Virus record (IMG/VR): IMGVR_UViG_2695420456_000023
Location: 1-29,209 of that record
Length of the DNA stretch: 29,209 bases
Origin: a virus
Taxonomy: Duplodnaviria; Heunggongvirae; Uroviricota; Caudoviricetes
Direction: 5' to 3' (one strand)
Position numbers and translations under genes: made by a program
Shown: in pieces, positions 2,621 to 29,209 of the stretch
Layout of the letters: each line of letters opens with the position of its first letter
Position numbering within the stretch: position 1 is the stretch's first letter
Notes under the pieces: model-generated
What the model was told of the DNA's origin: nothing
The model's database searches: none
The model's input: only the letters and a program-made list of their open reading frames with translations

Positions 2621-2732
2621 AACTGAAGTTGCCCTGAAAATGAAATTTTTTTGCACAACCGCAGAACTTTTCCGCAGGGCATCAGTCTTAATTAGTGCCA
2701 CTGCTTTTCTTTGATGTCCCCATTTTGTGGAG

Positions 2733-2776
2733 CCCATCAACCCCGCCATTTCGGTTCAAGGTTGATGGGTTTTTTG
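2733..2776 (+). terminator. intrinsic terminator-like hairpin downstream of ybjL
   Basis: cccatcaacc ... ggttgatggg stem followed by tttttt on the plus strand; probably still host DNA next to the prophage junction. Confidence 0.4.
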
Positions 2777-2855
2777 TTGCCTGAAATTTAAGATGTTTAA
2801 AATCATGATGTTAGAAGCACTGTTTTTTAACGATGGCGACAAAATGGCGGCAGCG

Positions 2856-3074
2856 TCAAAGAGAGAGCGCCACCTGTCCTGATTTCATTGGATGCGGCTG
2901 AACTGGATTCGACTCTTTTGGTGTTGCAATCGAACGAACAAAAGTTTCATGGGTAACAAAAGTATGGCTGCAGTTAATGTTCTGGCACTGGTTATAACGC
3001 TCTTTGGTCAATGAAGATACCTGAAAACTGCTGCGAGTATGGGCGGCACTTCCACACAGTGGGCAAATCATCAT
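2856..3074 (-). CDS. ogr: late gene transcriptional activator Ogr (zinc-finger)
   Basis: Translation contains CPLCG...CQNINC, the Cys4 zinc-finger signature of P2 Ogr. Starting at the internal Met gives 72 aa, the size of P2 Ogr; the longer 83-aa ORF start is less likely. Confidence 0.85.
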   Translation of the reverse strand: MMICPLCGSAAHTRSSFQVSSLTKERYNQCQNINCSHTFVTHETFVRSIATPKESNPVQPHPMKSGQVALSL

Positions 3075-3164
3075 TTTTCGAGTTCTCCCCATTTTTGCTA
3101 AATTCACAACAATGATACCGTATTATTCCATTTTGCAAACTTAAAAGTTCTCCATTGCGAAGAA

Positions 3165-8829: not shown

Positions 8830-10002
8830 TTACGCGCTGACCTGGCTGGCGAAATTCACCAGGTACTGATCGGTGATGCGCTGACGCAGCATCAGGTTTT
8901 CAAGTGGCGGCACTGGCGTGTAGTCGTAGTCGATGGTGAGTTTTCCGGCTTTCAGCGTGTCTTTGTCGTTCACCGACTCATCCAGCCAGCAATCACCACC
9001 AATGAGATAGCCCTGACTGACCAGGCTGCGCATTTTGGCGCGGATACCTTCGATAATGTCGCGGGCCAGCGACGGGTTAAGCGGTTTATCCACCGCCCAC
9101 ATGTGTGCTTCTGCCATCGTGTCCATCAGCACCTGCGCCGTGCGGGTGTAGTTTTCGAAGGCAAAGAGCGGGTCATCACTCAGGCAGCGGGAGCCCCAGA
9201 AGCGGAAACCGTCTTTACGCACAAGCGTGGTGACGTCGTTCTGGTTCAGCAGACCTGCATCGGTTGCCGGGTCCTGCAGATCCCAGAACACATCTGCAGA
9301 AATTCCGGTGACACCGTTCACGCCCACGTTGGACAGGCTTTTGTGCCATCCGGTCTGCTCGTCAATTTTGGCGCGCAGACCAAGCGCACGGGCGGTGGCA
9401 TATGCTGTTGCTTCGGCATTCAGCACCGTGTCCCAGCCAGTAAAGTCAGGCCAGATCAGCATCCCTTCGCGCTGGCTGAAGTTTTCGCGGTAAGTGATCG
9501 CCTCCTGCACTGTCTTGCAGCCATACGCTGACAGGTAAGCAAATCCACGCAGGCTTTGCGCCACGCTCAGCAACTCAGTAGCTACCGCCTTGGTGTCGTG
9601 GCCTGGCACGCCGAGAATGCGCGGTTTAACGCCGAGCTGTGACTGGGCAGATAACAGGGCTTTCATACCTGTTTTTTTACCTTCAGCAGTCACTGCGCCG
9701 ATGATATTGGTCGTGGTTTCGTCTTCCGTTTCACCCTGCGGCACACGCACAACAATGGTCACGGGTTTTGCCTGGTCAGCGATGGCATCCAGCGAACGGG
9801 CCAGAGTACCGGACTCACCCGCTTTACCGCTGGCAGTCAGCACATCAGTGATCAGCACGGGTTTATTAAGAGGAAACATTTTTGCATCGGCATCATCGCC
9901 CGTGCAGACCATACCCACGATGGCGGTGCTCACCGTGGTAATGGATCGGGTGCCTTCGTTGACTTCAACAACGCGCACCCCGTGGTGGTAATCCTGAGCC
10001 AT
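8830..10002 (-). CDS. FI: contractile tail sheath protein FI
   Basis: 390 aa, first gene of the FI-FII-E-T-U-D block; size and position match P2 FI. Confidence 0.9.
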
Positions 10003-10078
10003 AGTGGCGAACCTCCTGATTGGATTAGGCTTCGCCCTATGTTGAAGTGATTGTGCCTGACAAACAGCTAAGCGCAGT

Positions 10079-10096
10079 TGTACCGTTATTCACACA
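10079..10096 (-). promoter_or_regulatory. putative Ogr-dependent late promoter element (P_F-like), TGT-N12-ACA dyad
   Basis: tgtaccgttattcacaca sits about 85 bp upstream of the FI start codon and shares TGTACCG...CACACAAA with the dyad upstream of O. Confidence 0.4.
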
Positions 10097-10144
10097 AAAT
10101 GACGGTATTTGTCTGCTTTCAGGGATAATCAAAATAAAGCTGAT

Positions 10145-10711
10145 TCAGGGAGATTTATTGCTCTTATTGGCCGGAAATTTTCGATAAATGGTAGAAACGC
10201 CTACATCAAAAATCAGTGCAATACGCTGTCTTGATTCTCCGGCCTCGAGTAAACGCCCAATCTGTGCCCACTGTTCGCTGGTCAACTTAGGACGGCGTCC
10301 ACCTACTCTGCCTTTAGCACGAGCTGCAGCCAGCCCCGCCCTGGTACGTTCAACTATCAGTTCGCGTTCCATTTCAGCCAGGGCCCCCATGACATGAAAA
10401 AAGAAACGGCCCATTAGGGTGCTGGTATCAATACTGTCAGTCAGGCTTCGGAAATTCACGCCACGCTGGCGCAGCTCTTCTATCAGCGTAACAAGATGCC
10501 GCATACTGCGCCCCAGTCTGTCCAGCTTCCAGACAACCAGCGTGTCTCCTGCCGATAGTGTCCTGAGCAGCTTTTTCAGCCCCGGTCTGTCGGACTTGGT
10601 GCCACTGATTCTATCCTCAAAAATCCGCTCACATCCCGCACAGTTCAGTGCATTGCGTTGCAAATCGGTGTTCTGGTCATTTGTTGACACGCGTACATAG
10701 CCAATAAGCAT
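10145..10711 (-). CDS. serine DNA invertase, Gin/Pin/Hin/Cin family
   Basis: N-terminus MLIGYVRVSTNDQNTDLQ with the catalytic serine motif, VVWKLDRLGRS, and a C-terminal helix-turn-helix; very close to Gin and Pin as I recall them. The ORF track begins two codons earlier at 10717. Confidence 0.9.
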   Translation of the reverse strand: MLIGYVRVSTNDQNTDLQRNALNCAGCERIFEDRISGTKSDRPGLKKLLRTLSAGDTLVVWKLDRLGRSMRHLVTLIEELRQRGVNFRSLTDSIDTSTLMGRFFFHVMGALAEMERELIVERTRAGLAAARAKGRVGGRRPKLTSEQWAQIGRLLEAGESRQRIALIFDVGVSTIYRKFPANKSNKSP

Positions 10712-10777
10712 GATCATCCCCCTGAATAAAAACCGGAGATGATGCCAGTTAGCCGTTATCTCTGCATTTTCATAAAC

Positions 10778-11236
10778 GTTGGTTTGGGAGAAGGTGCTCC
10801 AGCTATTGGCGTTCCGTTCTTCTGGCCCTCCGCTGCAATGCCAAATACTGTAATCGACAGTTGGTCCGGTATGGTGTTTTTGAAGTTCAACGGGGCGAAA
10901 TTTTCTGCCACTGATTACCCTGTGCTGGCGAAAGTGTTTCCTTCACTGGCATTACCTGAAGCCCGCGGTGATTTCATTCGTATCTGGGATGACGGACGAG
11001 GTGCAGATGGTGGTCGCGAATTATTAAGCTGGCAGGCTGCTACAAACTTTTCTCAGTTTGCCGGGAATATAGGCGGAGGTGCGGGACACACAATTAACTT
11101 TCATGATGGCATCGCCGGAAATCAGCCAGGATTTTCACGATTTAATTTCACCAGTAACTCTGTGGGTGATGGTGTGAATTTTGTTGCTGTCAGACCGCGA
11201 AATATCGCATTTAACTTTCTGGTGAGGGCTAAATAA
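10778..11236 (+). CDS. alternative tail fibre C-terminal segment (currently not fused to H)
   Basis: ORF is in frame through the crossover site (NVGLGEG...) and would be joined to the constant part of H after inversion. The ATG at 10739 reported by the ORF track is probably not a real start. Confidence 0.65.
   Translation, partial: VGLGEGAPAIGVPFFWPSAAMPNTVIDSWSGMVFLKFNGAKFSATDYPVLAKVFPSLALPEARGDFIRIWDDGRGADGGRELLSWQAATNFSQFAGNIGGGAGHTINFHDGIAGNQPGFSRFNFTSNSVGDGVNFVAVRPRNIAFNFLVRAK
10779..10793. repeat. inversion crossover site, left (gix/hix-like)
   Basis: ttggtttgggagaag; its exact reverse complement is at 12627-12641. Lies about 65 bp from the invertase start codon. Confidence 0.7.
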
Positions 11237-11829
11237 TGAGACCTGTTTTTGATGAAAATGGGCTGGCTACAGTGCCGGGCGATATGCGTTGTTTTTATTA
11301 TGATGCAGTAACGTATGAATATACTGGCTGGTCTGATGAATATATTAATACTGGCGTAAGTATGCCCGCCTGTTCCACTGGTATTGACCCTGGCGAAAAC
11401 ATTCCGGGGAAAGTGGCAGTATTTACGGGGAAGAGATGGAGCCATGAAGAAGACCATCGCAATGAGACTGTTTACTCAACAGAAAATGGCGCAGCTGTTA
11501 CAGTGGATTATATCGGTGCCATCAAAGACGGTTATGTCACGCTTTCACCGTTAACGCCATACGATAAATGGGATGGTGAGAAATGGGTGACGGATACCGA
11601 GGCACAGCATAGCGCCGCAGTAGACGCGGCAGAAGCACAGCGTCAGTCACTAATTGATACTGCAATGGCTTCCATTAATCTGATTCAACTGAAATTGCAG
11701 GCCGGGAGGAAGCTGACGCAGACAGAAACCACCCGACTAAACGCTGTGCTGGATTACATTGACGCGGTGACGGCAACGGATACCAGCACAGCGCCGGACG
11801 TCATCTGGCCTGGACTGCCGGAGGCGTAG
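11236..11829 (+). CDS. tail fibre assembly protein (alternative, partner of 10778-11236)
   Basis: 197 aa starting at the stop of the alternative fibre segment; C-terminal ...TSTAPDVIWPGLPEA parallels the other assembly protein (...TSTAPDIEWPTPPAVQAR). Confidence 0.8.
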   Translation: MRPVFDENGLATVPGDMRCFYYDAVTYEYTGWSDEYINTGVSMPACSTGIDPGENIPGKVAVFTGKRWSHEEDHRNETVYSTENGAAVTVDYIGAIKDGYVTLSPLTPYDKWDGEKWVTDTEAQHSAAVDAAEAQRQSLIDTAMASINLIQLKLQAGRKLTQTETTRLNAVLDYIDAVTATDTSTAPDVIWPGLPEA

Positions 11830-12244
11830 GCCATTCAATATCGGGTGCTGTTGAAGTATCAACACGCATCAGCAGCACACGGTATTTCTTCCATTGGGTG
11901 AGAGTTGAAGTTTCTTCATCTGTTGCGATATCAGCATCAACAGCATCCTGACGCCAGGATATTTCACTGTCAGCTTTTGCACGAAATGTGGCTTTCATGT
12001 TTTCTGCATCTGATATTTTCTGTTCTGGTGAAAGCGGCGGCTCATCAACCCATGCAAGGGCCCCTGAAACCATTCCCAGCATTTTTCCTGTTGGCTTATT
12101 TCCCCCATTAAATCTGACAGCATCCTCATCGCTGATTTCAATACCATCCTGCGGCCATGTCCCCTCCTTGATATAACTTTCGTATAGCGCTGCGTTGTAG
12201 ATTGCATTTTCGGAAGGGCTGTAAACACTTTTAACTTTATTCAT
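11801..12244 (-). CDS. G: tail fibre assembly protein (active orientation)
   Basis: 147 aa, immediately downstream of H; converges on the alternative assembly gene and overlaps its 3' end by 29 bp. Confidence 0.85.
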   Translation of the reverse strand: MNKVKSVYSPSENAIYNAALYESYIKEGTWPQDGIEISDEDAVRFNGGNKPTGKMLGMVSGALAWVDEPPLSPEQKISDAENMKATFRAKADSEISWRQDAVDADIATDEETSTLTQWKKYRVLLMRVDTSTAPDIEWPTPPAVQAR

Positions 12245-12248
12245 TCTG

Positions 12249-13688
12249 TTATCTCCCTTTCGCTATATAGCAAAGATTAAACCCACCTCTACCTGACATA
12301 CGGGCTGTAAAATCCGTTCTTGAAGTACCAGGTGAGCTAACTCCATAAGCAGGCATGGTTGTTGGAGAAAGCAGAGACTCTTGGATATCTGCCATTGTCA
12401 GTGTAATTGATTCGACCCGCGCGGGGAAAGGTAGCGGGAAAACAACATTCGTCCCTGTCTGTCCAACGGGGAAACCGAAAATACCCCATTGTGTAATTAC
12501 CCCATCCGGCCCCTTACTCCATCCAGATTTAGGATTCGGCCAGTCTGCTGCTCCAGAGTGCCCCGTTGTAAAACTACTCATATCTGGTACTTGCCCGGTA
12601 TCCGTTCCGACGTTCCTCGTTGCCGCTTCTCCCAAACCAAGGTATGTGAGAAGACCAGCTACATCCTTTCCACTCAAATTGGTAAGCGTATTGTCCAGCG
12701 GTTGTTTACCTGACAGCGCATTAAGCATTGTCGTGGCAAAGTTCGGATCATTCCCCAGTGCCGCCGCCAGTTCGTTCAGTGTATCCAGTGCAGCAGGTGC
12801 AGAACCCACCATTCCTGCAATCGCCGATTTCACAAAAGCCGTAGTGGCAATCTGTGTATTGTTGACCGACTGCGCCGCCGTGGGGGCTGTTGGCGTTCCG
12901 GTGAGTGCCGGACTCGACAACGGTGCTTTTAGTGCCAGCGCATTGTTAATGGTGGTACTGAAATTCGGATCATTGTTAATGGCTGCGGCTATTTCTTTCA
13001 GCGTGTCCAGCATGGCTGGCGCACCATTAATAAGGGCCGTCAGTGCCGCCTGTACAAACGCAGTGGTCGCAACCTGCGTGGTATTATTCCCCGCCGCTGG
13101 CGTTGGCGCTTTGGGGGTTCCGGTAAATGTCGGGCTGGCTTTTGGCGCGTACTGTGAATGCGGGTCCGGTGCGGCAAGATGTTTTGCCATCTGATCATCC
13201 GCGTAAACCTTCAGCTCCAGTGCCTTGTCATCCACATACTTGCGGGTTGCCAGCACTACGGCAGGGTCGATTTTCAGGGTGATATTGTCCGTGCTGCTGG
13301 TAATCAGCACCATGCGCACGGTCTGGGTGCGCCCGCTGCCTTCAGCCAGTTGCGGCTTGTAGCTTTCCGGGCAGTTGCCCACGGCAATCAATGCCCCGGA
13401 TTCATCAAACAGGCCCACTTCACGTATCCACCAACCACCCTCGTTTTCAGGGATCACCTGTTCAGCAATAATCTGGCTGCTGTTCTGCGGGTCGATATAG
13501 AGCATATTCAGCGCAGCCCGGCGTTTCTCATTTACCAGTGCAGTCTGCTTTGCGTCTGGCGTCGGCAATGTTCCGCCACCATCGCCCACCGCCATATGGG
13601 TAATTTTTAGCGGCACACCGAGCGCGGCGGCGCTGGCAAGTTTCGCAGCGCCAATATCCGTCAGCAGGGTATAAAATTTTGTGCTCAT
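12249..13688 (-). CDS. H: tail fibre protein H (constant N-terminal part plus currently fused variable C-terminus)
   Basis: 479 aa; N-terminus MSTKFYTLLTDIGAAKLA... is P2 H-like; the crossover site lies at 12627-12641 within the ORF. Confidence 0.9.
   Translation of the reverse strand: MSTKFYTLLTDIGAAKLASAAALGVPLKITHMAVGDGGGTLPTPDAKQTALVNEKRRAALNMLYIDPQNSSQIIAEQVIPENEGGWWIREVGLFDESGALIAVGNCPESYKPQLAEGSGRTQTVRMVLITSSTDNITLKIDPAVVLATRKYVDDKALELKVYADDQMAKHLAAPDPHSQYAPKASPTFTGTPKAPTPAAGNNTTQVATTAFVQAALTALINGAPAMLDTLKEIAAAINNDPNFSTTINNALALKAPLSSPALTGTPTAPTAAQSVNNTQIATTAFVKSAIAGMVGSAPAALDTLNELAAALGNDPNFATTMLNALSGKQPLDNTLTNLSGKDVAGLLTYLGLGEAATRNVGTDTGQVPDMSSFTTGHSGAADWPNPKSGWSKGPDGVITQWGIFGFPVGQTGTNVVFPLPFPARVESITLTMADIQESLLSPTTMPAYGVSSPGTSRTDFTARMSGRGGFNLCYIAKGR
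12627..12641. repeat. inversion crossover site, right (gix/hix-like)
   Basis: cttctcccaaaccaa, perfect 15-bp inverted copy of 10779-10793; located inside tail fibre gene H at the codons for GLGE. Confidence 0.7.
12700..13120 (-). repeat. intragenic tandem repeat in H (two units of about 65 aa)
   Basis: The protein shows ...NNTTQVATTAFVQAAL...AMLDTLKEIAAAINNDPNFSTTINNALALKAPL followed by ...NNTQIATTAFVKSAIA...AALDTLNELAAALGNDPNFATTMLNALSGKQPL. DNA coordinates are approximate. Confidence 0.45.
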
Positions 13689-15191: not shown

Positions 15192-15537
15192 TCTCTGCTC
15201 CTGTTGATACGGAAAGGGACACAGGCACACCGTTATTCCGCCGCCCGGTCAGCTCCACCACCATTGAACCGTCAAAATTGCTGTTGATGGTGATGGAATC
15301 CAGCGTCAACCGTGGCTCCCAGCGACTCAGCGCCACATACACTGCCGACATGACCTGCAGGCGTAATGCCGGATTTTGTGGCTGATCTATCAGTGCCGAC
15401 AGCAGGGAACCATATTCCCGGCGGGCAATACGGCTACCCTGCGGTGTCAGCAGAATGTCCCGCACCGACTGGCGCAGATGATCAATATCAGTAATGACTT
15501 TGCCGCTGGTATTGTTCATCCCGCTATAAAGCGTCAT
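15178..15537 (-). CDS. W: baseplate protein W
   Basis: 119 aa between V and J; size and position of P2 gpW. Confidence 0.85.
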   Translation of the reverse strand: MTLYSGMNNTSGKVITDIDHLRQSVRDILLTPQGSRIARREYGSLLSALIDQPQNPALRLQVMSAVYVALSRWEPRLTLDSITINSNFDGSMVVELTGRRNNGVPVSLSVSTGAENGSD

Positions 15538-16112
15538 ACCGGGCCTCCGGTTGTATCGCCGCCTTTCAGGACGCCAGTATACTGATGCGCATCAACCACG
15601 ATCCCGTTAGAACTCATCGCTCCGCCGCCCTGGGTAACGCCACCATTGATCACCACTTCGCTGTTAATGCGCGTGCGGTTAGCCTCCAGTACAAACTCAC
15701 TGGTTTTCATGGTGATGTTGTCAGCAGCCTCAATGACCATTGATTTGATGCCCCTGACATACCAGCGCCCGGTGGCGGGTTCGTATTCAAACCAGCCACC
15801 GTCAGGATGTTCTGTCACGCAGGCGTCCGCCGACGTCGACGGTGGTGCGAACTGATTCGAATAGATGGCGGGCAGCGCAAACGCGGTTTCCAGATTGCCG
15901 CCCATGCTCAGCACCACCACCTGCTCATCTGGCGACGGGCACCACCATGTACGGGCACCACCGGCGCGTAGCGTCAGCCAGTTAATCCAGTTGGTTTCAA
16001 GCTCGCCTACCTTCACCCGGCACAGCCATTTGTTCCGGTCCACTTCGGTCACAATGCCGGTGCGGATCAGATTGGTGATAAGGCGCATAATTTCTGTGAG
16101 TTGTGCGTTCAT
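15534..16112 (-). CDS. V: baseplate spike/hub protein V
   Basis: N-terminal ...NAQLTEIMRLITNLIRTGIVTEVD resembles the P2 gpV N-terminus as I recall it. Start chosen at the second Met; the ORF track starts at 16127. Confidence 0.85.
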   Translation of the reverse strand: MNAQLTEIMRLITNLIRTGIVTEVDRNKWLCRVKVGELETNWINWLTLRAGGARTWWCPSPDEQVVVLSMGGNLETAFALPAIYSNQFAPPSTSADACVTEHPDGGWFEYEPATGRWYVRGIKSMVIEAADNITMKTSEFVLEANRTRINSEVVINGGVTQGGGAMSSNGIVVDAHQYTGVLKGGDTTGGPV

Positions 16113-16144
16113 GGTTGCAGTTTGCATGAAATCAAAAGAAAATA

Positions 16145-18013
16145 GTGATTTTCAAATTGTATGAAGGGTCTTACAATCCAATGAATTACAATGAAGAGCT
16201 AACCTCATATCTTAATTATTTAGTGGATCTTGAAAAATCCCCTAATTTCGCAGTAATGATTGACGGCGAATGGGGAAGCGGGAAAACATGGTTTGTCCGT
16301 AAATTAATGAATGAAGAATCACTAAAAGGGAAAGTTAAGCCATTAATGATCTCATTATATGGAATAAAATCCACCGAACAAATTGACGAAATAATTTTCA
16401 AGCAAATGCATCCCTTCCTTTCATCTAAAGGCATGTTGCTTGCTGGCACACTAACTAAGGCACTAATTAAAGGCACACTTAAGATTGATTTAAGTGATTC
16501 ATTCGTTACAAGTGTAGAGGGCTCCCCAGAACTACCCAACGTAAGCATTAAAGACTTTTACTACTCACCAGAAAACACCATATTGATATTTGATGATCTT
16601 GAACGCTGCGAATTAGATTGGAATTCTATATTTGGTTATATAAATAATTTCGTTGAAGAAAAAGAATGCAAGGTTTTGATTATCGCCAATGAGAGAGAAA
16701 TATTAAACCCCGCTAGAAATAAAAATCATGATGGTATTTATTTAGATGCAAAAGAAAAAGTTATAGGTATAACTTTCAAATATCAACCTCAACATTCTCA
16801 CGCCTACGAATATTTTCTAAAAAATATAACTAGCGAACTCAACACCATTCTGAACATAAAAAATATTGAGAGCTTACTCACTCTTTCAGAGTGTAATAAC
16901 ATTAGATTAATTGAAAGGCAAATTTCTTTTTTTGAAAGAATATTCAAAATATTACCAGCACAGTTTCAGCAAAATTCAGCTTTGACACTCAGATTATATC
17001 AATTACATTTTATACTCTATTTTGAATCTAATAAAATAAAACGAACCGTTTCTGACTTGTTAACATATAAAATAGATGATGATAATAAATACACATCCAA
17101 TTTAATTGAAAAATATGGTACAACTTATTTGTCAAATTTAATCTTAGACGAGGATACCTGGATCGATATAATTGACAATCAGAAAATCAATCAAGAAAAA
17201 ATAATATCTGAATTAATAACATTCGTCAGTGTTTCTAATAAAACAATTGAGCCATGGACACAACTTTGGAATTATGATCGATTAAAATACACAGAATTTG
17301 AGGAAAATTACAATTCAACACTTCATACGCTTATTAATTTTGAAATATTGAACGAGCATGTTCTTAAGCATATTTACGGATTATTACTTCATTTATCCAG
17401 AGAACATATAAAACCCATCAACGAACACTATTTAACAAACTTAGCCCACTCTGCTGTTGATATTTTAGCAGAAAAAGGAATGATACAAACTAGTTATGAA
17501 ATTTTTGATGAAGACATTAAGGATGAGCGATGGAGAGGATTAACTTTTCATTGCAAAGAAACTAGGGAATTCAAGGAGCTTGTTAATTACATAGAACAAA
17601 AGAAAAATGTATTAATTGCATATCAACTTAGCCAAGACGCTCAAAAGATATTCAAATTAATACAGTCCGGAAATCATGAATATTACGCACATCTAAATTT
17701 CAACAACAAAGATATTTATTCATTTCACGACAAACCAGTTCTTTATTTTGGTGATGCTGAACAACTAACAAAAATACTGATAGACTCAACCGAGATGCAT
17801 TTCTTTGGCTATGCTATAAAAAACCGATACAACAACACCCCTTATCTAAAAGAGCTTTCTGCAGAGCGTTTTTTCCACCGCGAGCTAATTAGAAAGCTAA
17901 TTGAAAAGAAAACTCAAATAAACTCAAATATATTATCATTACAAATCGATGAGCTCATAAATGATTGTTTAACTCCCGCAATAGATAAATTAAAGCAAAG
18001 CATTGAAAATTAA
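16145..18013 (+). CDS. KAP-family P-loop NTPase (cargo gene; candidate anti-phage / abortive-infection protein)
   Basis: Walker A GEWGSGKT and Walker B-like LIFDDLER are hallmarks of KAP NTPases, the family that includes F-plasmid PifA. Strongly AT-rich compared with flanking phage genes, opposite strand to S and V. Start is GTG at 16145 or ATG at 16181. Confidence 0.8.
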   Translation: MIFKLYEGSYNPMNYNEELTSYLNYLVDLEKSPNFAVMIDGEWGSGKTWFVRKLMNEESLKGKVKPLMISLYGIKSTEQIDEIIFKQMHPFLSSKGMLLAGTLTKALIKGTLKIDLSDSFVTSVEGSPELPNVSIKDFYYSPENTILIFDDLERCELDWNSIFGYINNFVEEKECKVLIIANEREILNPARNKNHDGIYLDAKEKVIGITFKYQPQHSHAYEYFLKNITSELNTILNIKNIESLLTLSECNNIRLIERQISFFERIFKILPAQFQQNSALTLRLYQLHFILYFESNKIKRTVSDLLTYKIDDDNKYTSNLIEKYGTTYLSNLILDEDTWIDIIDNQKINQEKIISELITFVSVSNKTIEPWTQLWNYDRLKYTEFEENYNSTLHTLINFEILNEHVLKHIYGLLLHLSREHIKPINEHYLTNLAHSAVDILAEKGMIQTSYEIFDEDIKDERWRGLTFHCKETREFKELVNYIEQKKNVLIAYQLSQDAQKIFKLIQSGNHEYYAHLNFNNKDIYSFHDKPVLYFGDAEQLTKILIDSTEMHFFGYAIKNRYNNTPYLKELSAERFFHRELIRKLIEKKTQINSNILSLQIDELINDCLTPAIDKLKQSIEN

Positions 18014-18053: not shown

Positions 18054-18497
18054 TTATGAAATACAATATATCAAAAATCTCTCAACTTCTTTTTTAATAG
18101 GCTCATTAATACCTAGCAAGCATCGTCTGGAATAATGAACTATCGGCCCACGTTTACTGACACGATCACGCAGTCCATAATGGTGAACACGGGCAATGCG
18201 CTGCACCTTACCTTCAAACTGCACGCTGGCAGAATCGGCGCTGGCGGCAGTTTTCAGGTATTTTGTGGTGCGCAGCTTCGCAAACATCTGACGTTTGATG
18301 CGGCCTTTTTTACTGCGCGCTGTTACCCGTCGCGGCTCATAACTACTGCCATCTGGATTGCGCTGCATCCTGATGTTTTGCTGCTGTGTCCGGCGCAGCT
18401 CTTGTGCCAGTTGGCGCATCATGCGACTTCTTGCAGCTGGCTCCAGATTCGCCAGTAAGGCACTCAGCCAGTCGTCCACTTTCTGCAATTCAGCCAC
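18054..18497 (-). CDS. S: tail completion protein S
   Basis: 147 aa downstream of R in P2 order; the last 85 bp or so (18054-18140) are AT-rich like the adjacent cargo. Confidence 0.85.
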   Translation of the reverse strand: MAELQKVDDWLSALLANLEPAARSRMMRQLAQELRRTQQQNIRMQRNPDGSSYEPRRVTARSKKGRIKRQMFAKLRTTKYLKTAASADSASVQFEGKVQRIARVHHYGLRDRVSKRGPIVHYSRRCLLGINEPIKKEVERFLIYCIS

Positions 18498-26846: not shown

Positions 26847-28115
26847 TTAATTTGGCAACTCCAAATCATCCTTTAGATCTTTGATATCTTGATGTTGCAA
26901 CCATATTAGGAAGCCTTTATCAACAACATTCAGTTTCCTATTTGTTTGGTCATAATCCAAAATAATAGGCATTATATTTTTCTTTATTTGCAAAGACGCA
27001 GTTGATTGTAACGACTGAGTAACATTACCCAGGTTTAACTTCTCCCCTCTTGGATGTACACTTTGTAATATTGCCCTTATATCTTTAAATTTCAAACCTA
27101 ATTCAAGTTCACTAATGGTTGATGAAAGGACAGGATATAAAATCCATTTATGCATTTGAAGTTCAGTATCTTGAAATCCATCTGAAAAATTAATAAGGAA
27201 AGAATTGTAACGAGCCGATTGGTCATTAACAATTTTTGCAATGATATCCTTTCCATCCAAACCAGCTCCAATAGTTCTTTTTGTTTGCTGAGTCTCTGAT
27301 ATTCCGCATTCAATACACGCACGCCTACATGCTTCTTGCACTAAATAAATACTATTGAGACAGTGTGTTACTACATCTGCTTTGAAAGTTGGATCAAAAT
27401 CAATGTTAAGGAGTAAACCTCCTTTATCAATTGCCATCTCCAGTTCAGAATCTTGCCATTTGTCTGCGTTAACAGAAATAATCCTGCCAGTTAAGTCACC
27501 ATTGTAAACAATGAGCCGATTATCTTCTAGCCAAACTCCAACAATTACAAAAATAATGCTTGATGTTTCATGAAAGGCTTTTAATGCGATCGAAAAATCT
27601 CTTTGAGTTTCGAAAGGCATATAATGAAAATCCTCAAGAACGATAATCTTCTTGAAATTTATAGATTTTAAAGCCGCTATAACATCATTAACATCATCAA
27701 CATCAATTTCTAAAGGCGCGGTTACTTGTTCATGAGATTTCGTATCTTCGATCTCGCCTCCGGCACTCGCCACAAAACCCAAAATAGAAGTTTTTATTGA
27801 TGCAATTATTTTATTTTTCCCCGTAATACCTTTCTTGGTAGACTGAGTTATTTCGAATCCAGCTCTTTTTAAAATACTTGCATTCAATTCAGATACATCA
27901 GAACGATTCGAACACTGCACCAAAATATAATCATCAGAATTAATACAGTGTTTTCTTACGCAAGTCTTACCCTGCTTTGAACTGCCGTAAATAACAATAT
28001 GTTTCTTTGCTTGTAATTCCTGTTTAAGTTTGAAATCAACATCAGGTCTTTCAATGTAATTAAGTGGCAAATCTCTTGAGAGCCCAAAGATATCATTCGT
28101 ATCAAAAATTTCCAT
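26847..28115 (-). CDS. P-loop ATPase (AAA-like; cargo gene, candidate defence protein)
   Basis: Walker A GSSKQGKT near the N-terminus and Walker B-like IIVLEDFH about 120 residues later; 422 aa, AT-rich, located between Q and the cos-like site. Confidence 0.75.
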   Translation of the reverse strand: MEIFDTNDIFGLSRDLPLNYIERPDVDFKLKQELQAKKHIVIYGSSKQGKTCVRKHCINSDDYILVQCSNRSDVSELNASILKRAGFEITQSTKKGITGKNKIIASIKTSILGFVASAGGEIEDTKSHEQVTAPLEIDVDDVNDVIAALKSINFKKIIVLEDFHYMPFETQRDFSIALKAFHETSSIIFVIVGVWLEDNRLIVYNGDLTGRIISVNADKWQDSELEMAIDKGGLLLNIDFDPTFKADVVTHCLNSIYLVQEACRRACIECGISETQQTKRTIGAGLDGKDIIAKIVNDQSARYNSFLINFSDGFQDTELQMHKWILYPVLSSTISELELGLKFKDIRAILQSVHPRGEKLNLGNVTQSLQSTASLQIKKNIMPIILDYDQTNRKLNVVDKGFLIWLQHQDIKDLKDDLELPN

Positions 28116-28519: not shown

Positions 28520-29209
28520 ATGACTGTGCACAAGCTCTCTGGTGCGTTTTTCCACGATATGCAGGTTGAGTGGCCCTGCCCTAACTGCAATCAGAAAACC
28601 CTACAGATCATTAAAGAAAGTTTCGTCTCGTATGACACACATGATACCCGAAAATTCCGCAGTGAAGATTGGTTTGAACTAGAAATGGATTCATCTATTT
28701 TCAGTTGCATGGCCCGCTGTTCAAGAATGCAATGTGGTGAAGTTGTGGCCTGTACTGGTAAGAGTGGATGGGAACAAGGTTGGGATGAAGAAAGAAATGA
28801 TATTGAGTACTATCAATGGCACAGACCTTTCACCTTTTACCCATCACTGCATCCTTTCGAAATACCTGAAAAATGCCCAGAAGAAATTACCGAACCGCTT
28901 GAAGCCTCATTTTCCATTTTCCTAATACAGCCTGGCGCAGCAGCAAACCTAATTCGAATTTCAGTTGAAAGAATGCTAACCGCTATGGATGTAGCTGAAC
29001 GTAATGATAATGGCAAACGCATAACTCTACACCACCGTTTAGGGATGCTACCTGAATTATACGGATCGTTTTCAAGACCTCTTATGGCAATTAAATTTTT
29101 AGGAAATGCCGGAAGCCATACCTACGATGAAGTAAAAGTCAAAGACATTGAGGATGCTTTTGTGAGGTGTACTGACAATAGCGGACACTACCATTTGTTC
29201 TTTTTTTAA
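28520..29209 (+). CDS. hypothetical Cys-rich protein, truncated by the window end (candidate defence gene)
   Basis: Good RBS (gagga) 9 nt upstream of the ATG; N-terminal CPNC and CMARCSRMQCGEVVAC cysteine clusters; C-terminal RITLHH and FLGNAGSH motifs; no stop codon before the end of the window. Confidence 0.7.
   Translation: MTVHKLSGAFFHDMQVEWPCPNCNQKTLQIIKESFVSYDTHDTRKFRSEDWFELEMDSSIFSCMARCSRMQCGEVVACTGKSGWEQGWDEERNDIEYYQWHRPFTFYPSLHPFEIPEKCPEEITEPLEASFSIFLIQPGAAANLIRISVERMLTAMDVAERNDNGKRITLHHRLGMLPELYGSFSRPLMAIKFLGNAGSHTYDEVKVKDIEDAFVRCTDNSGHYHLFFF

Follow-up and report, generated by a model that had tools for sequence, protein, structure and literature searches.

A probable Pin/Gin-type inversion switch for tail-fibre specificity in a P2-like prophage of Escherichia coli

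The window, i.e., the whole 29,209-nucleotide stretch of viral DNA that was analysed, contains the P2 late-gene set in the P2 order (Q P / O N M L ... V W J I H G / FI FII E T U D ogr), with Pfam matches to Tail_P2_I, Phage_GPD, Phage_base_V, Phage_tail_S, sheath, and portal. The prophage, integrated next to rybB/ybjL in E. coli, is apparently intact, with genes for the baseplate, sheath, tube, tape measure, capsid, and terminase all present. Nucleotide identity to the Peduoviridae phage 500465-1 (NC_049342) is 98% from the sheath gene to the invertase gene and 98% across the constant part of the tail-fibre gene H. Phage P2 (NC_001895) shares the late-gene order V-W-J-I-H-G / FI-FII-E-T-U-D-ogr and ∼70% nucleotide identity in the sheath gene, but it has a single H tip, a single G chaperone, and fun(Z) between G and FI, where the window has a second tip-and-chaperone cassette and an invertase gene (Table 1). 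Two candidate defence genes, PDC-S49 and PDC-S59, are also carried by the prophage.

Table 1. Features of the invertible tail-fibre region and associated genes (positions in the window)
Feature	Position	Strand	Remarks
DNA invertase gene, Pin/Gin-family small serine recombinase, 188 aa	10145..10711	-	Pfam, PHROG, PDB alignment
Candidate recombinational enhancer, 5' invertase coding region	10627..10690	-	Two Fis-like 15-mers; inferred
Invertase-proximal crossover site	10767..10792	+	TTTTCATAAACG-TT-GGTTTGGGAGAA; core 10779-10780
Silent alternative tail-fibre C-terminal cassette, 151 codons, GLGEGAPAIGVPFFW...	10781..11236	+	Without own start or promoter
Chaperone of silent cassette, TfaE-like, 197 aa	11236..11829	+	Caudo_TAP, E 3e-27; PHROG 105
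Chaperone of expressed cassette, 147 aa	11801..12244	-	Caudo_TAP, E 2e-32; PHROG 188
Whole tail-fibre gene H, 479 aa	12249-13688	-	One crossover site within
Expressed variable C-terminus of H, 129 aa	12249..12638	-	gp53-like C-terminal domain
H-internal crossover site	12627..12652	-	TTCTCACATACC-TT-GGTTTGGGAGAA read on minus strand; core 12639-12640
Constant N-terminal part of H, 350 aa	12641..13688	-	Pfam Phage_tail_fib N-terminal, E 3e-65
ogr-like zinc-finger ORF	2856-3107		

The recombinase open reading frame spans 10145-10717, with an upstream ATG at 10717, and the true start is likely the ATG at 10711, which is preceded by a GGGGGA Shine-Dalgarno sequence and gives an N-terminus, MLIGYVRVS..., like that of Gin and Pin. 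The product matches Pfam Resolvase (residues 5-137; E 1e-51), HTH_7 (residues 140-183; E 6e-16), and the PHROG 125 DNA invertases (E 9e-99). Its best PDB matches are the Mu Gin entries 3UJ3 and 4M6F (E 4e-91), to which residues 1-184 align with few substitutions, and PinE is very similar, in keeping with its original prediction as a Gin/Pin-type invertase. The active-site serine (Gin S9/Hin S10) and arginines are present: R7, DRLGRS, and the catalytic Ser9, whose substitution had been named in advance as evidence of inactivity, are intact, and MLIGYVRVSTNDQ and KLDRLGRS are unchanged from Gin 4M6F. H106 and M114, positions at which hyperactivating changes are known, are conserved in wild-type form. 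In Hin, K47/R48/K51 and Q151/R154/L155 are specific to Fis/enhancer-dependent invertases and absent from resolvases (PMC3798978), and the window invertase keeps their equivalents, K46/K47/R50 and Q150/R153/L154 (Hin numbering minus one). Identity of the invertase gene to pinE is 87% over the first 200 nucleotides and 71% over nucleotides 200-540. The invertase promoter could not be placed, because a consensus scan of 9950-12700 found no sigma-70-like promoter for the gene. A weak terminator-like hairpin lies at 10750-10731 (minus strand).

Within the 5' part of the invertase gene, two Fis-like 15-mers of the form G-N13-C, GTGTCAACAAATGAC (10676-10690) and GTGCGGGATGTGAGC (10627-10641), lie at coding nucleotides 22-36 and 71-85, and their positions are identical in the window, pinE, and gin. 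Coding nucleotides 25-41 are invariant, synonymous sites included, among six representatives (<93% identity), and the first 30-90 nucleotides show the least synonymous diversity, as a gradient rather than a sharp footprint and overlapping the conserved catalytic-serine codons. A Fis-bound enhancer in this region, and with it Fis dependence, is suggested by the alignment to gin and pinE together with the Hin Fis sites, which lie at positions homologous to those of the two candidates. The proximal candidate lies ∼97 bp from the crossover core, and the enhancer-to-site distance in Hin is ∼100 bp (PMC3798978).

The perfect 15-bp inverted repeat from which this analysis started, TTGGTTTGGGAGAAG, is exact at 10779-10793 (plus strand) and recurs as an exact inverted copy on the minus strand; the left copy lies where it had been placed, and the right copy, reported at 12627-12641, is at 12626-12640, one base away. 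The segment from 10779 to 12640 measures 1862 bp, the 1.86 kb originally given. There is no further match with ≤2 mismatches besides these two copies, and the pair of matches was reproduced in 0 of 100 dinucleotide shuffles. A repeat search extends the pair to 27 nucleotides at 85% complementarity (10767-10793/12626-12652), and each copy of the 15-bp repeat makes up the core and inner half of a canonical 26-bp (12-2-12) invertase crossover site. The functional sites are 26 bp long, and crossover takes place at the TT with which the 15-bp repeat begins. As expected of Fis-dependent invertase sites, the two are in inverted orientation and have an identical 2-bp TT/AA core and an imperfect dyad; their outer half-sites differ at 4 of 12 positions. 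The DNA between the cores is 1858 bp, the invertase gene lies 56 bp from the proximal site, and the window contains no further site of 26-bp architecture that could indicate a shufflon- or Min-type arrangement. The proximal site is identical to the pinE-adjacent site of the E. coli K-12 prophage e14 (locus L008, 5606-5631), and the same site type adjoins the invertase gene in ∼70 related loci. The outer half-site of the H type, TTCTC(A/G)CATACC, is present in ∼45 P2-like loci, and the 12-TT-12 two-site pattern recurs in 64 two-site loci.

Codon-by-codon reading of both copies bears out the claims that the repeat falls within H at the codons for GLGE and that both C-terminal segments are in frame through it. 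The H frame reads TAC CTT GGT TTG GGA GAA GCG (Y L G L G E A), and the left copy reads AAC GTT GGT TTG GGA GAA GGT (N V G L G E G), in frame with the open reading frame at 10739-11236. The layout is that of a Mu G-type segment, with a constant N-terminus outside and two in-frame tips inside, each with its own chaperone gene, and the two chaperone genes are convergent with the predicted 29-bp overlap. Homology of the constant part to relatives runs from 13700 and stops abruptly at precisely 12626. The fusion that inversion would create, H', is 501 aa long in silico without stops and exists as an intact open reading frame in two relatives, L018 (97% identity) and L015 (95%).

The two tips belong to different families. 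Expressed with H is a tip with a Pfam Gp53-like_C domain (H residues 394-478) and matches to the PHROG tail-fibre families 1396 and 2557; its PDB matches are marginal only, e.g., a weak one to 4MTM (a putative tail fibre). The silent tip is of the StfE-like/tail-collar type: its PHROG matches are to the C-termini of tail-fibre families 3100 (E 5e-51) and 523 (E 4e-41), and it is 42% identical to the C-terminus of e14 StfE, and is 93-97% identical to the fibre tips of phages mEp043 and 500465-2, while a PDB sequence search returned no match and hence no solved homologue. Neither tip has detectable similarity to the tips of P2 H, Mu S, or Mu S'. The chaperone of the silent cassette is 62% identical to e14 TfaE, and that of the expressed cassette resembles TfaP, Mu U, and P2 G in part. 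The difference in family between the tips would fit binding to different receptors.

Both orientations occur among relatives, while the present clone is represented in one orientation by a single assembled sequence. Relative to the invertase gene, this 1.86-kb segment (at 96% identity) has the opposite orientation in L004, L005, and L007 and that of the window in L006; L006 and L007 are one chromosomal locus in two strains. In each of two pairs of near-identical P2-like prophages (L014/L017 and L046/L054), the members are distinguished by an inversion that runs precisely from site to site, and their segments are 99.6% identical. In L046/L054, the change of orientation is accompanied by an exchange of sides between the inner half-site variants GAGAT and GAGGG. 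Among 20 close relatives, the TfaE-like cassette is silent in 12 and joined to H in 8. Exact queries of 37-38 nucleotides detected all four predicted junctions in viral contigs (13, 30, 3, and 2 contigs), and homology breakpoints in relatives fall exactly at the crossover sites. The exact cassette pair was not found flipped on a near-identical H-type backbone in IMG/VR, where only the window-like L107 and L114 were recovered; the flipped pair occurs in L004, whose P2-like backbone is more diverged, and in the e14-like prophages L005 and L007. These relatives, together with a Caudo_TAP gene beside each tip, uphold the claim that inversion would exchange the H C-terminus along with its cognate chaperone.

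The original prediction of a Mu G-like switch on a P2-type backbone holds, with the refinement that the nearest relative is the Pin/P-segment system of e14 (pinE, stfP/ycfK, tfaP, tfaE, and stfE) and not the Mu G segment. The e14 system shares the core and inner half-site at the distal site also, a constant fibre N-terminus, two convergent tip-plus-chaperone cassettes, an invertase gene that is outside the segment and reads away from it, and a segment of ∼1.8 kb. It differs in being a cryptic lambdoid prophage rather than an apparently complete P2-like myovirus prophage, and the expressed gp53-like tip is unrelated to StfP. The outer half-site in the window is TTCTCACATACC and not the CTCTCGAAAACC of e14, because the constant part is P2 gpH. 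The Mu G segment and Gin are of the same mechanism class, with S/U versus S'/U' corresponding to H/tfa versus H'/tfa', and the Mu invertase gene likewise lies outside the segment and adjoins one site. However, the gix sites differ in sequence and core (TTCCTGTAAACC GA GGTTTTGGATAA), the segment is ∼3 kb on a Mu rather than a P2 backbone, and no similarity to Mu tips or chaperones is detectable except between the C-terminal part of one window chaperone and Mu U. Closer in backbone are the prophages of enteropathogenic E. coli (EPEC) E2348/69 and phage 500465-1, in which an invertase gene and second cassette also lie between the tail-fibre operon and the sheath gene FI. Phage 500465-1 has other tips, in mosaic cassettes, and a TfaE-like cassette joined to H. 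In the EPEC P2-like prophages, inversions of ∼1.8-2.2 kb have been demonstrated experimentally by sequencing and PCR (Goldberg et al. 2014, PMC4272514); one of these prophages has three sites and four variants, whereas the window has two sites only.

We conclude, with a probability of about 0.9, that tail-fibre specificity in this P2-like (Peduoviridae) prophage is switched by site-specific inversion of the 1.86-kb element through a Pin/Gin-type system. The first observation and its interpretation are thus supported, with refinements concerning site length and closest relative. The following mechanism is proposed. Dimers of the 188-aa serine invertase would bind two inverted 26-bp sites, one just upstream of the invertase gene and the other within H at the codons for LLTYL|GLGE. 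On the Hin and Gin model, the sites would come together with a Fis-bound enhancer situated early in the invertase coding sequence, all four strands would be cut at the central TT/AA through phosphoserine links, and half of the tetramer would rotate by 180 degrees before religation of the ends, inverting 1858 bp. In the present orientation, the late V-operon transcript encodes H (350 constant aa plus the 129-aa gp53-like tip) and the 147-aa chaperone; after inversion its products would be H', in which a StfE-like tip of 151 aa follows the 350 constant aa, and the TfaE-like chaperone of 197 aa. Virions of two kinds, differing in receptor specificity, would thus be released by a population of lysogens. 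Activity of the switch in the present clone is predicted, as is the binding of different receptors by the two tips.

The repeat could in principle reflect chance or shared coding similarity at GLGE, with rearrangement by general homologous recombination rather than by a site-specific invertase, as its perfect identity covers just 15 bp and lies inside coding sequence. However, RecA does not recombine efficiently over as little as 15 bp, and the shuffles, the 12-2-12 dyad architecture, the identity of a site with that of e14, the invertase gene 56 bp away, and the exact coincidence of the relatives' breakpoints with the sites leave this explanation without credence. A module that derives from a switch but no longer flips, through an unexpressed invertase or a defective enhancer, would leave the left cassette as a silent fossil. 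Such a relic would be compatible with the lack of a recognisable promoter upstream of the invertase gene, the single orientation in the window, and the 4 of 12 differences between outer half-sites. Yet an unselected silent cassette would be expected to decay, and all five open reading frames are intact without frameshifts; the catalytic and Fis-contact residues are kept, and both sites match forms in loci demonstrably found in both orientations. Unlike outer half-sites are, moreover, normal in the family, including in e14, which inverts (PMC4272514). We consider loss of activity quite improbable.

The switch might alternatively be kept mainly for the benefit of the lysogen, if the fibre made in one orientation masked outer-membrane receptors and blocked superinfecting phages. 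The precedent is StfE2 of e14, which is reported to block T2 adsorption after PinQ-driven inversion (PMC12529663); the similarity of the silent tip to the StfE C-terminus (42%) and of its chaperone to TfaE (62%) recalls that case, and the same prophage has candidate defence genes. The e14 precedent is, however, a cryptic prophage, whereas H belongs to a late operon that is complete, in a P2-like prophage that is apparently intact, and would for that reason be expressed only on induction, and the sequence gives no sign of expression in the lysogen. This role is highly improbable as the main function, and an inversion switch that serves virion tail-fibre specificity is the preferred reading.

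A further, unlikely proposition is that the sites are cross-wired with other Pin systems, with flipping in trans, recombination between prophages, and a role for H' as a receptor-masking antiphage factor. The core and inner half-site are common to hundreds of prophages, and because of this, and because the proximal site is identical to that of e14, the invertases PinE, PinQ, and PinR of resident cryptic prophages may flip the switch in trans. Sites in different prophages may also recombine with one another and cause large chromosomal rearrangements. Such cross-wiring could have left its mark on loci such as L068 (invertase-segment-invertase) and L023 (an H-type half-site on either side), and by analogy with e14 StfE2, H' with its StfE-like tip might act as a receptor-masking antiphage factor.

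The device itself is ordinary and already known, being common, annotated, and documented by experiment in P2-like prophages, and the finding matters little beyond correct annotation. The 165-aa open reading frame at 10739-11236 is a promoterless alternative 3' end of H and not a free-standing gene, and the "recombinase family protein" is a tail-fibre invertase, neither an integrase nor a resolvase. Because the segment flips, assemblies of the region may differ between isolates or be chimeric. The receptor specificity of both tips would be of practical use for host-range prediction, and the locus is one further case of the well-documented modularity by which P2-like, Mu-like, and lambdoid phages exchange fibre tips.

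The plus strand carries the 15-mer TTGGTTTGGGAGAAG at 10779-10793, and a perfect inverted copy of it lies at 12626-12640. The original prediction placed the first copy correctly and the second (12627-12641) one base too high. No further copies with ≤2 mismatches were found in the window, and two matches were obtained in 0 of 100 dinucleotide-preserving shuffles. In an independent repeat search, the paired stretch reached 27 nt with 85% complementarity (10767-10793/12626-12652). Within a canonical 26-bp (12-2-12) invertase crossover site, the 15-bp repeat makes up the central dinucleotide and the inner half; no third site of this architecture was found in the window. Cores and inner half-sites are identical on the two sides; between the outer half-sites there are four differences. 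The left site is the same at every base as the site adjacent to pinE, the invertase gene of Escherichia coli K-12 prophage e14, and the distal e14 site has the core and inner half common to the window sites. The gix crossover sites of phage Mu are alike in architecture but differ in sequence and core. Recombination through the TT core would flip the 1858 bp from 10781 to 12638.

Features of the prophage, its invertible segment and the flanking chromosome
Feature	Position	Strand	Description
RybB sRNA gene	2700-2778	+	Rfam RF00110, 105 bits; abuts prophage end
ogr-like zinc-finger ORF	2856-3107	-	78 bp beyond RybB gene
Invertase ORF	10145-10717		Resolvase and HTH_7 domains
Left crossover site	10767-10792	+	TTTTCATAAACG-TT-GGTTTGGGAGAA
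Silent cassette	10781 to 11236		151 codons; similar to tail-fibre PHROGs at their C-terminal ends (E 5e-51)
Right crossover site	12652 to 12627	-	TTCTCACATACC-TT-GGTTTGGGAGAA
Tail-fibre gene H	12249-13688		479 aa; P2-type N-terminal fibre domain and gp53-like C-terminal domain
KAP-family P-loop NTPase	16145-18013	+	622 aa; PADLOC candidate defence family PDC-S49, full length, E 2e-134
Cargo gene	26847-28115	-	422 aa; PADLOC PDC-S59 (E 5e-72), weak AAA_22 match
Cargo gene, DUF4145 protein	28520-29209, runs past window end	+	weak PD-T7-4 match

Direct reading of the codons across the repeat gives Y-L-G-L-G-E-A in H and N-V-G-L-G-E-G in the left-hand ORF, both in frame, as had been proposed for the two C-terminal segments. 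Also borne out is the 29-bp overlap of the convergent assembly genes (11236-11829 on the plus strand and 11801-12244 on the minus strand). A Caudo_TAP chaperone gene follows each tip, and the 197-aa chaperone is 62% identical to TfaE, the chaperone of e14. The silent tip shares 42% identity with the C terminus of the e14 fibre StfE and 93 to 97% with the fibre tips of phages mEp043 and 500465-2. Having neither a promoter nor a start codon context of its own, the silent cassette is expressed only once fused to H. The predicted fusion product, H' (501 aa, no stops), is found as an intact ORF in two related loci (97% identity in L018 and 95% in L015).

The invertible segment has mosaic features. 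A 313-bp block (11548-11860) that includes the 3' ends at which the two chaperone genes converge is ∼90% conserved in almost all related segments, even where the tips on its two sides are unrelated, and the window and the related locus L001 have their mosaic breakpoint at 11548. The block resembles a hinge for homologous recombination that allows phages to exchange half-segments. The GC content of the invertase and invertible segment (10001-13000) is 48 to 50%, compared to 55 to 59% in adjacent P2 late genes, which fits a horizontally exchanged module.

The window holds a single orientation, and inversion was therefore judged from comparative data. Other E. coli genomes contain the whole 1.86-kb segment with ∼96% identity. 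Its orientation relative to the invertase is flipped in L004, a P2-like prophage, and in L005 and L007, both e14-like prophages, and window-like in L006, which represents the same chromosomal locus as L007 in a second strain. Homology to relatives breaks at 10793 and 12626. Two pairs of near-identical prophages (L014/L017 and L046/L054) are distinguished by an exact inversion, the inverted segments being 99.6% identical; in the latter pair, the inner half-site variants …GAGAT and …GAGGG swap sides with orientation, which is what crossover at the core predicts. Among 20 close P2-like relatives, the TfaE-like cassette is silent in 12 and joined to H in 8. Exact 37- to 38-nt matches to the four possible junctions were sought in viral contigs: the silent tip is joined to H in 13 and to the invertase side in 30, and the expressed tip to H in 3 and to the invertase side in 2. 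In clonal cultures, inversion has been demonstrated by sequencing and PCR for two P2-like prophages of EPEC E2348/69 and likewise occurs in e14 of K-12 (Goldberg et al., PMC4272514).

Exactly two sites were found in 64 of 80 viral contigs encoding close invertase relatives. In these 64 contigs, the core and inner half are nearly invariant, and the outer half is of either an invertase-side or an H-side type. Some relatives have other layouts. In L023 (3903-3928), the invertase-adjacent 12-bp outer half-site is swapped exactly for the H type with flanks unchanged; L025 (2054 and 3920) and L068 (2174 and 3920) have invertase-type outer half-sites on both sides, L068 with a second invertase gene; and L027 and L035 have four and three sites, respectively. 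These layouts could reflect recombination between sites of different prophages, multisite shufflon-like variants, or assembly chimeras of a flipping region.

The best solved-structure matches of the invertase are two entries for Gin, the Mu invertase (E 4e-91, residues 1 to 184), and the catalytic Ser9, DRLGRS motif, H106 and M114 are all unchanged from Gin. PinE is also highly similar. The probable start codon is the ATG at 10711, from which a 188-aa protein is read that begins MLIGY..., like Gin and PinE. Between this codon and the left crossover site, a weak terminator-like hairpin followed by TTTTTATT (10731-10750, minus strand) lies on the same strand as the invertase and H and could be the end of the fibre operon or an attenuator of invertase expression.

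Invertases of the Hin family depend on an enhancer bound by Fis, which is located within the 5' portion of their own gene and ∼100 bp away from one of the crossover sites (PMC3798978). The invertase has K46/K47/R50 and Q150/R153/L154, equivalents of Hin residues that are conserved only among Fis/enhancer-dependent invertases (McLean et al., PMC3798978). Identity to pinE is 87% over the first 200 nt and 71% over the remainder, and synonymous diversity among 64 unique relatives is minimal in the first 30 to 90 nt. Nucleotides 25 to 41 of the coding sequence are invariant, including synonymous positions, in six representatives of <93% identity, gin and pinE among them. Two G-N13-C 15-mers, at coding nucleotides 22 to 36 (10676-10690, ∼97 bp from the crossover core) and 71 to 85 (10627-10641), occupy the same positions in pinE and gin. 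These data fit a candidate enhancer but do not prove it, because the same region encodes the catalytic serine.

The left end of the window is E. coli chromosome (ybjM, ybjL and the RybB sRNA gene; 99.9% identity to many E. coli genomes), and the remainder is a P2-like prophage with ogr, D, tape measure, tube, sheath, baseplate, capsid and terminase genes. Over the sheath, the invertase and the constant part of H, the prophage shares 98% identity with Peduoviridae phage 500465-1. The position of the RybB gene at the prophage end indicates integration next to rybB or at its 3' end, downstream of ybjL; the same junction also appears, at 99.8 to 99.9% identity, in further complete genomes including that of E. 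coli W. In P2 itself, fun(Z) occupies the interval between the fibre operon and sheath gene FI; here that interval holds the invertase gene and the second cassette. Baseplate gene V (15534-16127) and tail-completion gene S (18054-18497) flank the KAP NTPase gene, which runs on the other strand, has 30 to 35% GC against ∼56% in the backbone and resembles a moron or defence cargo gene. The two other cargo genes also have low GC (35 to 44%) and lie past portal gene Q, the old/tin position in P2.

A chance or RecA-based origin of the repeat is excluded by the shuffles, the e14-identical site, the site survey and the precise inversions in relatives. The module might instead be a frozen relic that no longer flips in this prophage, which is unlikely: all its parts are intact and indistinguishable from those of relatives found in both orientations. 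Less probable still is a role benefiting the lysogen, in which the fibre product masks receptors, as reported for StfE2 of e14 (PMC12529663); H here sits in the late operon of an apparently complete prophage.

An inversion switch is the preferred reading, and sites, genes, backbone and relatives in both orientations agree that the Mu G-like tail-fibre switch on a P2-type backbone was a real observation, rightly interpreted. It is not new: the closest known system, the e14 Pin/P segment, shares the layout and has an identical site and a very similar invertase, and on a P2-like backbone the module has both experimental documentation and existing annotation in reference phage genomes. Parts of a 3.6-kb query match 3,020 of 5,426 complete E. 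coli genomes.

Most likely, the invertase would act on the segment through standard serine-recombinase subunit rotation, with infrequent flipping in lysogens; we infer that the enzyme is active in this clone and Fis dependent. Induced cells would then yield virions carrying either H with the 147-aa chaperone or H' with the 197-aa chaperone, and these two virion types may differ in receptor specificity and hence in host range.
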